Positions 24,684 through 27,011 of a stretch of 64,000 nt of DNA are shown here, one piece after another. A program made the translations under genes and the position numbers. This DNA comes from an uncultured Ignavibacteria bacterium. GTDB taxonomy: Bacteria > Zixibacteria > MSB-5A5 > CAIYYT01. The first letter of the stretch is position 1, and the number at the start of each line of letters is the position of its first letter. The notes below the pieces were generated by a model, which was given only the letters and a program-made list of their open reading frames with translations, was not told the DNA's origin and ran no database searches. The stretch spans positions 3,199 through 67,198 of the forward strand of contig CAZQBX010000013.1 of assembly GCA_964592145.1 (NCBI GenBank), read 5' to 3'.

Positions 24684-27011
24684 ATGACATTGTCCCCACT
24701 TCAATTTGCCAAGGAATGGGAAAAACAAAAATCCGGCTTAGTCGATCCCGCCTCTGGTGACCGGGGAATCCTGCAACTCTGCGATTTCTGGCCGCACTTG
24801 AATACACACTTCGATGAGCCGGCGTATAAGTCATATTTCGATGAATATTCTTCTCTAATGCTGCCATTGCTCGGCGAGGCTTCGCTTTCAGACCTCACTC
24901 CTTCTGAACTAGAGCAATTGATAAGTATCATTGAGAAGCTAATGGGTTCCAAAGAGGCAACACCCGGAATCGCGAACGCCCTAACCAAAGTCTATCAATC
25001 TGCTGCACGTGTAAACTTCTATGTTGGCAGACTCAAGTCTGGGCTTCAATATTTGGCGAAGTCTCTCGCGACCGAGGCGCCCGACTTTTCTGAATCGGAG
25101 TTTAGCGAACTCACGGAACAAGTCGCGTTGCAGCACTTAACTGAACTCATTTCGGCTCAGCATGAGTCCCTAGCCACGGCGTTACGAGGTTACCTTTCTG
25201 AATGGCAGTCCGAGCGTCAGGCGGTTTCGAACGGGCGCACGTACTGCCTCTTGGTCGATTCCGGCAGTGGGCCTTCAGCACCACGCGGGAGACTTAAGCT
25301 CCTTCAAGGCGACGTCGACGTTGCAGACAACCACTCCTCAACTGATAAGGTCACCTTTGCTGATATTGTCGTTGCACCCAATGATCCGTTGATTGGCGGC
25401 GCCTACCGGTCACTTGAGTCCGTTAGACAACTTCTTCAGCGCGAAAGGATGAGTCATTTAGCAAAAAGACGCTTCAACGCCAACTTCCGGCTATCCGAAA
25501 CAAATCATCGCCTAACGGGTGAGTCAATGGGTCTGGCATTCGCGCTGGTGGCATACACCCAGCTCCTCAAATCGGAAGCTCTTCGGATTGAACGATTCAA
25601 TTCTGCCGAAGTGGCCGTTACGGGCATCCTTAACGACAAAGGTGTGCTATTGCCCGTCAGAGATGAGTCATTCGCTGTCAAAGTTTCACGGGCCTTCTTC
25701 TCACACATACGTTTCCTGGTAGTCCCGGAAGATAATTTTGAAGCGGCACAACGGGAGATTTCCCGACTTCAGGTAGAGTATCCTCGTCGTCAGTTGCTCC
25801 TCGTGAGAGCTCGAACCCTTGCCGATGTTGTTGCCGATTTGAACATCATTCGATCCGAGCGCATTTGTATCGGGCAATGGGTCGGCAAACAAGCAGCCAA
25901 GTATAGCCGCATGACTAAAGTGCAGATTCCGATACTGGCCGTGCTGGCATACTTGCTTTTGTGTCTCATCATTCCCCAAGCCTGGATTCTCTTTGATGAC
26001 AATCCAGCTTTCGTGCGACCGGTCATGGAAACGGGTGCAATTGAGGTTTTCAACGCAGATTCGACACGCCTGTGGAAGTACCAGTTTCCTAATCGATTTA
26101 ACGCAAGTTTCTCCGAAGCACAGATTCAGACGATGATGATGGCAACGGATATTGACCGCAACGGCGATAACGAAGTGCTCGTGATTGCCTTGAACGAAAA
26201 TGATGTCGAGGAAAATGCTTGGCTCAACGTCTTTGGCAAGGAGGGAAACTTCCTCTACAAGAGGTATCTGGCGATTCCCAACGAATACCCCGGCGATACC
26301 GACAGTACCACCTATCATGGTTTCGCGATTCATCCAGTCAGGCTGATGAACTCAATTTACATATTGACAATCGCCACCCAGAATCTGCCGGCGCGTTGTC
26401 ATATTCGACTCTGGGATGCCCAGGGAGATTCCATCCTCTGGTTTATTCACTCGGGCGGAGCACAATATCGGGTGACAAAAGATATTGATGGTGACGGCTC
26501 GGAAGAGATGATGTTTACCGCCTTCGGAAATCGCACCCGTTGTGCAACGTGTTTTGCACTCAATCTGAGAACCAAAAGCGGCTGTTCACCGCCCTATGAA
26601 GATGCGCACTATGACCTGACCAAATTGAAGCGGGCATCAGACTTCTACTATGCGGCATTTCCGCCGACCGACCTCTGCGGACACGACTGCAATGAACGCT
26701 ATAACCAGCCTGGCAACTTGGGAGTGCGCGATCGCGACGGTGGACGGATTGATATGTACACGATGGAGTCGAATCTTCCGAACTGTCAGGCTATCTACTC
26801 GCTTGATCGCACTTTCCGAGCCAGAAGTGTGGCTTTCACGGACCAATACGTCAAGAGACGGATTGACTTGATTCAGGCCAGCCAAATCCCCTCCACTCCT
26901 GATTCCATCTATTCTACCCAGATTCTCAATGCTGTCCGGTACTGGACTACCGAAGGTTGGGTCACGGAAGGCGAACTACGCGCCCGCCAGCCCGGCTCTT
27001 CGACCCCTTAG
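24684..27011 (+). CDS. Membrane-anchored Lon_C (S16)-like protease with extracytoplasmic FG-GAP-like domain
   Basis: TGESMGLAFA...VAVTGILNDKGVLLPV...AVK parallels Lon GPSAG...VAMTGEI...G.VLPI...K (Ser281, Lys333). TM helix ~25920-25995; DIDRNGDNEVLV and DIDGDGSEEMMF. No AAA+ module. Confidence 0.68.
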   Translation: MTLSPLQFAKEWEKQKSGLVDPASGDRGILQLCDFWPHLNTHFDEPAYKSYFDEYSSLMLPLLGEASLSDLTPSELEQLISIIEKLMGSKEATPGIANALTKVYQSAARVNFYVGRLKSGLQYLAKSLATEAPDFSESEFSELTEQVALQHLTELISAQHESLATALRGYLSEWQSERQAVSNGRTYCLLVDSGSGPSAPRGRLKLLQGDVDVADNHSSTDKVTFADIVVAPNDPLIGGAYRSLESVRQLLQRERMSHLAKRRFNANFRLSETNHRLTGESMGLAFALVAYTQLLKSEALRIERFNSAEVAVTGILNDKGVLLPVRDESFAVKVSRAFFSHIRFLVVPEDNFEAAQREISRLQVEYPRRQLLLVRARTLADVVADLNIIRSERICIGQWVGKQAAKYSRMTKVQIPILAVLAYLLLCLIIPQAWILFDDNPAFVRPVMETGAIEVFNADSTRLWKYQFPNRFNASFSEAQIQTMMMATDIDRNGDNEVLVIALNENDVEENAWLNVFGKEGNFLYKRYLAIPNEYPGDTDSTTYHGFAIHPVRLMNSIYILTIATQNLPARCHIRLWDAQGDSILWFIHSGGAQYRVTKDIDGDGSEEMMFTAFGNRTRCATCFALNLRTKSGCSPPYEDAHYDLTKLKRASDFYYAAFPPTDLCGHDCNERYNQPGNLGVRDRDGGRIDMYTMESNLPNCQAIYSLDRTFRARSVAFTDQYVKRRIDLIQASQIPSTPDSIYSTQILNAVRYWTTEGWVTEGELRARQPGSSTP

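Follow-up and report, generated by a model that had tools for sequence, protein, structure and literature searches.

Gene organization of the locus

The window analyzed in this study is a stretch of 64,000 nucleotides (nt) of an uncultured Ignavibacteria bacterium (contig CAZQBX010000013.1). It contains three genes on the + strand, here called A, B and C, the last of which is predicted to encode a membrane protein that combines a Lon-type protease domain with an outer sensor-like domain. Genes A and B precede C on the same strand and both are unannotated; the stop codon of B lies 4 nt before the ATG of C. Gene C is an open reading frame (ORF) of 775 amino acids (aa) that is translated without internal stops. 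Its start codon is the ATG at 24684, from which all homologs likewise begin; an alternative TTG start at 24591 would run into gene B. The features of the three genes are collected in table 1.

Table 1. Features of genes A, B and C (positions in the window; TM, transmembrane; ZAS, zinc anti-sigma; AF2, AlphaFold2; pLDDT, predicted local distance difference test).
Feature	Position	Strand	Residues	Description
Gene A	22714..23793	+	359 aa	All-helical orphan; first gene of the module; candidate output/regulator held by B
Gene B	23819..24679	+	286 aa	Soluble; N-terminal ZAS-type domain, variable linker, conserved beta-rich C-terminal domain
Putative zinc site of B	23825..23926	+	H3 ... H29-x3-C33-x2-C36	
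LAADS of B linker	24101..24115	+		Proposed cleavage site (after LAA)
Gene C	24684..27011	+	775 aa	Predicted membrane receptor-protease
Helical N-domain of C	24684..25223	+	aa 1-180	Proposed docking site for B; 10 AF2 helices, pLDDT mostly 75-95; no family match
Lon-type (MEROPS S16-like) proteolytic domain of C	25224..25868	+	aa 181-395	Without AAA+; Foldseek, hhalign
Ser281 of C	25524..25526	+		Predicted nucleophile; aligns with Lon S679; invariant
Lys333 of C	25680..25682	+		Predicted general base; aligns with Lon K722; invariant
TM helix of C	25920..25994	+	aa 413-437	N-in/C-out; hydropathy, charge bias, AF2 helix 396-429; kept across the family
Extracytoplasmic domain of C	25995..27008	+	aa 438-775	FG-GAP/VCBS-like repeats, G-x-S-P-P-Y motif
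Ca-type loops of C	26148..26174 and 26481..26507	+		Dx[DN]x[DN]GxxE
G-x-S-P-P-Y motif of C	26580..26594	+	aa 633-637	

Protease domain and topology of C

A first-pass annotation, made from the sequence alone, had proposed that C is a membrane protease with a Lon-type Ser/Lys dyad. This relationship was visible only to profile and structure methods. In the curated libraries, C gave a noise match in Pfam, none in NCBIfam and a weak CARF_LON match at aa 306-366 in PADLOC, and a search of the PDB with the single sequence gave no match. Pfam Lon_C (PF05362) was matched below threshold by two of 24 relatives (E 0.015), and not by the window protein. When a profile of 24 homologs was used, aa 309-355 aligned to the proteolytic domain of A. 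fulgidus LonB (1z0b, E 0.17), with K333 falling on the Lys of the LonB motif VTQKIEAA (HMMER), which we take to be the catalytic K552.

The structure of C was predicted with AF2 for aa 1-434 from the alignment of 24 homologs (pLDDT 86.4, predicted template modeling score 0.81). The model consists of a helical N-domain (aa 1-180), an alpha/beta domain (aa 185-395) and a long helix (aa 396-429) that runs toward the membrane. Foldseek found 162 matches for this model in the PDB at E<=1e-3, and the best 50 of them were all Lon proteolytic domains (LonA, LonB and LONP1; E 1e-9 to 1e-7, template modeling score (TMt) up to 0.82). Comparison with the E. coli Lon P-domain (3wu5_B) gave a TMt of 0.81 and a root mean square deviation of 2.9 A over ~205 columns. 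The region of aa 181-395 is thus modeled as a Lon proteolytic domain, the only kind of fold among those best matches, in agreement with the first-pass annotation.

Ser281 (in LTGESMGLA) and Lys333 (in FAVKVSRAFFS) were found where they had been placed, at a spacing of 52 residues as compared with 43 for S679 and K722 of E. coli Lon. In an hhalign comparison of the family profile with the E. coli Lon P-domain, for which the Lon sequence was entered by hand, S281 was paired with S679 and K333 with K722 (E 6.6e-5, probability 64%), and the VA-V/F-TG motif of the C family was aligned with AMTG of Lon. The same alignment reproduced closely the two insertions that had been claimed, with nine additional residues before VAVTG and two after VLLPV. 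It also contained a 2-residue deletion after GLAFA, which was absent from the earlier annotation. The nine extra residues of the dyad spacing are mainly due to the insertion before VAVTG. In the AF2 model S281 lies at the N-terminus of a helix (aa 283-296) and K333 within a helix; in Lon, likewise, the catalytic Ser is located at a helix N-terminus and the Lys inside a helix.

Conservation of these residues was determined for 172 representatives of the C family that were aligned to the profile, counting only sequences that covered the respective column. S281 was conserved in 160/160 and K333 in 164/164 sequences, G279 was invariant, G283 was present in 154/160, and position 313 was occupied by T or S. 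The representatives are only ~20-30% identical to the window protein. The invariance of both residues indicates that the S281/K333 arrangement is no chance occurrence.

No Walker A motif ([AG]x4GK[ST]) is present in C. Neither Pfam nor NCBIfam gave a match to an AAA family, and aa 1-180 are all-helical in the AF2 model. C therefore has no ATPase module and is not an ATP-dependent Lon, as had been expected. Judged from the model and the alignments, C is not a Lon but a stand-alone protease domain of the S16-like type, since it combines the P-domain fold and the dyad with the lack of AAA+.

The single TM helix that had been proposed corresponds to the sole hydrophobic stretch of C (Kyte-Doolittle 2.5). 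This segment is flanked by four K/R on the N-terminal side and one on the C-terminal side, which by the positive-inside rule places the N-terminal 412 residues in the cytoplasm. A cytoplasmic active site and an outer FG-GAP-like domain, as suggested by the first-pass annotation, are supported by this rule and by the soluble partners encoded next door. We regard the ORF, the Lon fold, the equivalence and invariance of the dyad, the absence of the ATPase and the topology signals of C as established, and likewise the A-B-C module with its abutting B and C and the ZAS motif and invariant LAA island of B, which are described below.

A word-indexed search with C yielded 26 relatives, all metagenomic. 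An exhaustive search with a hidden Markov model (HMM) gave 808 clusters (at 50% identity) at E<=1e-30. At the looser cutoff of E<=1e-10 there were 2679, and some of these weaker matches will be unrelated FG-GAP proteins. All of the ten C-family clusters that were looked at carry the name "hypothetical protein". A second subfamily consists of shorter proteins (~710 aa) with a shorter N-domain (~125 aa). The species-level genomes that carry C are mostly metagenome-assembled genomes (MAGs) of Zixibacteria/Zixiibacteriota and of "uncultured Ignavibacteria", together with one Abyssobacteria MAG; the window shares 77-78% identity and its synteny with MAGs of this kind.

In one homolog (P0012; L001:6343-6552) the coding region of the N-domain contains a 72-nt unit in three tandem in-frame copies. 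The unit has a palindromic core, CCCCTCTCCC-GGAG-GGAGAGGGG, and encodes peptides of the type SPLxPLPEGEGKNE, which also occur at other loop positions in the homologs P0008, P0010, P0018 and P0146. From its sequence, the unit looks like a hairpin-forming repeat element that is tolerated within coding sequence.

Extracytoplasmic domain of C

The region following the TM helix had been described as FG-GAP-like, with two DxDxDG-type loops and several Cys. Both loops are present (DIDRNGDNE at aa 489 and DIDGDGSEE at aa 600), and seven of the 11 Cys of C lie in this region. Among 24 members of the family, Pfam detected FG-GAP_3 in six (best E 1.7e-6) and FG-GAP in two, with no match in the window protein itself. 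In a comparison of the C profile with the PDB, FG-GAP propellers were found (6mlt, 4e-4; YesW, 6e-3). These matches, together with the two Ca-type loops, support an FG-GAP-like repeat domain, which is probably Ca-binding as judged from its sequence.

The most conserved feature of C beyond the protease domain is the motif G-x-S-P-P-Y. G633, P636 and P637 were invariant in 24 homologs (alignment A1), and G633 and P636 were still invariant in a broader alignment of 14 sequences (A6), suggesting that the motif may be a site for a ligand or partner. In hundreds of C clusters the ectodomain was full-length and always fused to the protease.

Gene B encodes a ZAS-like protein with a conserved LAA island

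The N-terminus of B carries the ligand pattern H/C-x(24-26)-H-x3-C-x2-C, which is the pattern of ZAS domains such as those of ChrR and RsrA. In subfamily 1, H3, H29, C33 and C36 were invariant (alignment A2). In subfamily 2 the first ligand is a Cys (CP-x24-H-x3-C-x2-C); the same exchange of H for C at the first ligand separates ChrR from RsrA. The best match of the B profile in the PDB was the anti-sigma-W domain of RsiW (E 0.0035), with ChrR following as a lower, weak match, and Pfam zf-HC2 was detected in nine of 30 members (best E 6.8e-6). PADLOC gave no match for B. The protein has no hydrophobic segment, indicating that it is cytoplasmic and thus on the same side of the membrane as the active site of C.

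The anti-sigma domain comprises ~75 residues; the linker behind it differs between members in both length and sequence. This linker holds a single conserved island, (L/M)-A-A-(D/Q/E)-(G/S), with variable flanks. A96 and A97 were present in 40/40 sequences and L95 in 32/40 (M in five), while position 98 was D, Q or E and position 99 G or S.

Gene A and the search for a sigma factor

Gene A is fast-evolving, with 20-25% identity between lineages at a length of ~350 aa, and homolog searches gave only nine usable sequences. No match was obtained in Pfam (27 members), NCBIfam, PADLOC or a profile search of the PDB. An hhalign comparison with E. coli RpoE was negative, and a Foldseek search with the AF2 model of A, which is of poor quality (pLDDT 59), gave no match. 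A likeness of the A N-terminus to sigma region 2 that was noticed by eye was dropped, as it was not supported by the profile, Pfam, hhalign and PADLOC searches.

In five loci, those for which precomputed Pfam tables existed, no canonical sigma gene was present within a distance of 6-10 kb. Likewise, phmmer searches with RpoE and SigW as seeds, which are of limited sensitivity, detected no sigma factor among the 1022 ORFs of all loci. With no canonical sigma gene nearby, A remains as the conserved third partner. One candidate from the window, ORF 12145-13020, was retrieved by jackhmmer from RpoE and was rejected as a false positive, because Pfam assigns it to PdxS (SOR/SNZ). This ORF forms a PdxS/PdxT pair (SOR_SNZ, SNO) with 13017-13598. 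Its spurious match to the E. coli RpoE seed had an E of 7.7e-4 and reached 1e-28 once iterated, which warns against iterated searches on small databases.

A scan for promoters and terminators around the operon performed no better than shuffled sequences. In the 200 nt upstream of A (22514-22713 in the window), the words ATTGACT, TTGACTT, CTTGACA and TTCAAAT were 10-15 times enriched over 25 loci. As sequence words, those of the TTGAC type would fit a -35 box of the housekeeping type rather than an autoregulated promoter of the extracytoplasmic function (ECF) type.

Conservation of the A-B-C module

In 37 species-level loci, B was found directly upstream of C and A upstream of B wherever the sequence sufficed (tblastn, HMM), and the stop codon of B abuts or overlaps the start of C in almost all of them. 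Both A and B were upstream of C in 31 of the 34 evaluable species-level loci. The exceptions are a truncated C (L024, 6001-7515), a frameshifted C (L036, 6001-7898) and L031. The order A-B-C was also found in every metagenomic locus of subfamily 2 with enough upstream sequence. Thus A is linked to B and C as strictly as these are to each other. In every curated family all three proteins score below threshold, and full-text searches of the literature did not bring up a module of this kind. In one locus (L033) gene A has an internal stop (about 4025-5101).

In ~15/36 loci, and additionally in L057 and in L058, C is followed directly and on the same strand by a gene for a large protein whose C-terminal domain is of the type IX secretion kind; a gene of this sort is absent directly 3' of C in the window. 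Examples are L010:8340-11210, L013:8495-11242, L018:8494-11748, L025:8595-11033, L057:12436-14478 and L058:12545-15535. Their sorting domains belong to Por_Secre_tail, FlgD_ig or CHU_C, and they differ in their N-terminal modules (FG-GAP, Laminin_G_3, CBM_4_9, dockerin, lactonase propeller). These type IX cargo genes may be the regulon of the module.

Comparison with known systems

CalpL, which belongs to a type III CRISPR system, consists of an N-domain, a Lon protease without ATPase and a SAVED sensor. It oligomerizes with cyclic tetra-adenylate (cA4) and then cuts the anti-sigma factor CalpT, for which the N-domain of a neighboring subunit is the docking site. In Cloacimonas (C. acidaminovorans) CalpT is cut within LAAA (A204/A205), which exposes an LAA C-degron; cellular proteases then clear the fragment and the sigma factor is released. 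C resembles CalpL in being an ATPase-less Lon-type Ser/Lys protease that has a helical N-domain in front of it and is joined to a sensor domain. The resemblance extends to the CalpL-CalpT-CalpS module as a whole, since in both cases three genes include a soluble two-domain protein of the anti-sigma type with an Ala-rich linker motif (LAAA in CalpT, (L/M)AA(D/Q/E)(G/S) in B). A CalpL-like activation of C, which the first-pass annotation had suggested as a possibility without regard to B, becomes much more plausible because the adjoining B is ZAS-like and carries the invariant LAA motif.

The differences are also clear. The sensor of C is FG-GAP-like and extracytoplasmic and comes after a TM helix, whereas that of CalpL is a cytosolic SAVED domain, and C has no SAVED or CARF match except for a weak one that is confined to the Lon region. 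No cas families were found in the five neighborhood tables or among the recurrent neighbor clusters of C. B has a ZAS-type domain, while CalpT is MazF-like and contains DUF2080. CalpS is an ECF-like sigma factor, but A is not recognizable as one. The gene order is A-B-C here and L-T-S in C. acidaminovorans. With no SAVED domain, CRISPR context or sequence match, C is not a member of the CalpL family but, by analogy, probably works like one.

With Lon, C shares the P-domain fold (template modeling score ~0.8 to E. coli Lon) and three residues, S281, K333 and T313, which correspond to the Ser-Lys dyad and Thr704. It differs from Lon in the absence of AAA+ and Walker A, in the dyad spacing (52, not 43), in scoring below the Pfam Lon_C threshold and in the position of its TM helix, which comes after the protease domain. 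Archaeal LonB is anchored via its ATPase domain. The ligand pattern of B, its profile matches to RsiW and ChrR, and the detection of zf-HC2 in 9/30 members connect it with the ZAS proteins (ChrR, RsrA, RsiW). However, B has no adjacent gene of the sigma-70 family and no TM helix, its C-terminal domain is novel, and the window protein remains below the Pfam threshold.

In the DegS/RseP-RseA-ClpXP and PrsW/RasP-RsiW systems, a signal from outside leads to an anti-sigma factor being cleaved, and a C-terminal Ala-Ala degron directs the product to a cytoplasmic unfoldase-protease. The model proposed below would have all of these elements in common with them: outside signal, anti-sigma cut, Ala-Ala degron and removal by an unfoldase-protease. 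Unlike in those systems, the membrane-spanning component here is the protease and not the anti-sigma factor, and one cut in the cytoplasm would take the place of the cascade of site-1 and site-2 proteases.

Proposed mechanism and alternatives

By analogy with CalpL, we propose that the module is a transmembrane CalpL-like relay in which the receptor-protease C cuts B and thereby frees A; we lean toward this reading, at somewhat better than even odds. In the proposed mechanism, C would be a single-pass N-in/C-out membrane receptor with a cytoplasmic, ATP-independent Lon-type Ser/Lys protease and an outer FG-GAP-like sensor. The N-terminal domain of B would hold a partner, most likely A, and its C-terminal domain would use the helical N-domain of C as a docking site. 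When the ectodomain receives a signal, C would change its oligomeric state or its packing, in the way that CalpL responds to cA4, and the protease of one C subunit would then cut the linker of docked B in trans, after (L/M)-A-A. The N-terminal fragment B(1-97), ending in an ssrA-like LAA, would be removed by ClpXP-type proteases. A would be set free and would presumably act on transcription. Candidate targets are the genes, often present 3' of C, that encode type IX-secreted surface proteins. The cleavage of B by C, the position of the cut, the activation by oligomerization, the degron-driven removal, the binding of A to B and the role of A are what we infer from the data presented above.

Several results weigh against this model. 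No match to CalpL was obtained for C in the profile search of the PDB, and CalpL was not in the best 50 Foldseek matches; the structural similarity of C is to Lon in general. The B protein of the window stays below threshold (zf-HC2 E 0.074, NCBIfam anti-sigma-E E 0.008), and its LAA island could be a binding motif instead of a cleavage site. For A, no similarity to sigma factors or DNA-binding folds was detected by profile search, hhalign, Foldseek or Pfam, and its AF2 model was built from an alignment of only eight sequences. The search for a sigma factor consisted of single-sequence phmmer and of Pfam in five loci, so that a divergent sigma factor could escape. Finally, an intact C paralog (L031, 6001-8070) lacks A and B; its genome contains a complete module at another place (L030).

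Four other explanations were considered. B might be an RsrA-type redox or zinc switch and release its partner unaided; C would then only clear or reset B or A (turnover, quality control), and the ectodomain would serve localization or unrelated binding. ZAS domains can indeed be thiol/zinc redox sensors, as in RsrA, the change from H to C at the first ligand between the B subfamilies is compatible with redox-active variants, and a link between ectodomain and activity is not in evidence. However, redox sensing is not a property of most ZAS proteins, the position of the LAA island is in the linker and outside the zinc site, and the ectodomain is retained at full length and in fusion with the protease in hundreds of clusters. 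We consider this explanation unlikely. We give a similarly low probability to the reading that B holds a canonical ECF sigma factor whose gene lies at another place in the genome; A would then be an accessory, for instance a chaperone, an adaptor or another substrate, instead of the output. Anti-sigma (ASD/ZAS) domains bind domains of the sigma-70 family, B matches RsiW, and A has no detectable similarity to sigma factors or helix-turn-helix proteins. Against this, such pairs are normally adjacent and no sigma gene was found within 6-10 kb in about 40 loci by a search of limited sensitivity, and A is as tightly linked to B and C as B is to C.

It is also conceivable, at a still lower probability, that the Lon-like domain of C is a non-catalytic scaffold (pseudo-protease), or cuts only itself, and that signaling occurs by conformational coupling. 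Inactive Lon_C-like folds are known from RadA/Sms and ComM-type proteins, and the sub-threshold score of C in Pfam Lon_C would agree with such a role. A pseudo-protease is nevertheless unlikely because the dyad is invariant: at ~20-30% identity, the absolute conservation of G279, S281 and K333, the near-absolute conservation of G283 and the restriction of position 313 to T or S are the signature of an active enzyme. Equally improbable is an anti-phage or envelope-conflict system with a toxic instead of a transcriptional output. The closest functional analog, CalpL, is a defense effector, and weak CARF_LON matches were obtained in PADLOC (E 0.02-0.025). The neighborhood tables, however, contained no recurrent cas, CBASS (cyclic oligonucleotide-based antiphage signaling system) or other defense genes, PADLOC was negative for A and B, and the neighbors are housekeeping or surface-protein genes.

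The CalpL-like relay is the reading that we retain. A more far-reaching version of it is offered tentatively, and we consider it rather doubtful: A-B-C might represent a new class of one-component transmembrane protease receptor, in which an FG-GAP sensor gates a Lon-type protease, and the LAA cut of B frees A as a new transcription factor or RNA-polymerase-binding protein that controls type IX-secreted surface proteins.

Other neighboring genes

Two genes of the - strand, for a response regulator of the OmpR type (27314-28006) and for a histidine kinase (28003-29724), are convergent with C at its 3' end. This pair was present in nine loci, mostly of closer relatives, and for this reason it probably reflects synteny and not membership in the module. 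Two DUF5916 proteins are encoded in the window (20325-22574, + strand; 35981-38647, - strand). The first contains a CBM9-like domain, and its gene lies directly upstream of A, as it does in close relatives (L059).

Significance

No earlier description of the module came up in full-text searches. It would belong with protease-controlled anti-sigma signaling of the CalpL-like kind, and the orphan protein A leaves room for more. To our knowledge, transmembrane sigma/anti-sigma signaling relies on membrane-embedded anti-sigma factors and a cascade of two proteases, and Lon-type signaling proteases are known only as cytosolic CRISPR effectors (CalpL). The A-B-C module would join both ideas, in that the receptor itself is the protease and a single cytoplasmic cut is made. 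If true, this would be an undescribed bacterial route from a signal outside to a cut inside the cell. The module is widespread (hundreds of clusters at 50% identity), yet all three of its proteins lie below the thresholds of curated families. It leads to a prediction of the substrate site, namely that B is cut after LAA, and the orphan protein A may be a new type of regulator. As a compact unit, it might also serve as an engineerable outside-in protease switch. Should the one-component receptor reading be true, CalpL-type signaling would be an ancient general mechanism that was borrowed by CRISPR systems. For uncultured Zixibacteria-like organisms, the module could explain how large sets of secreted surface proteins are controlled.

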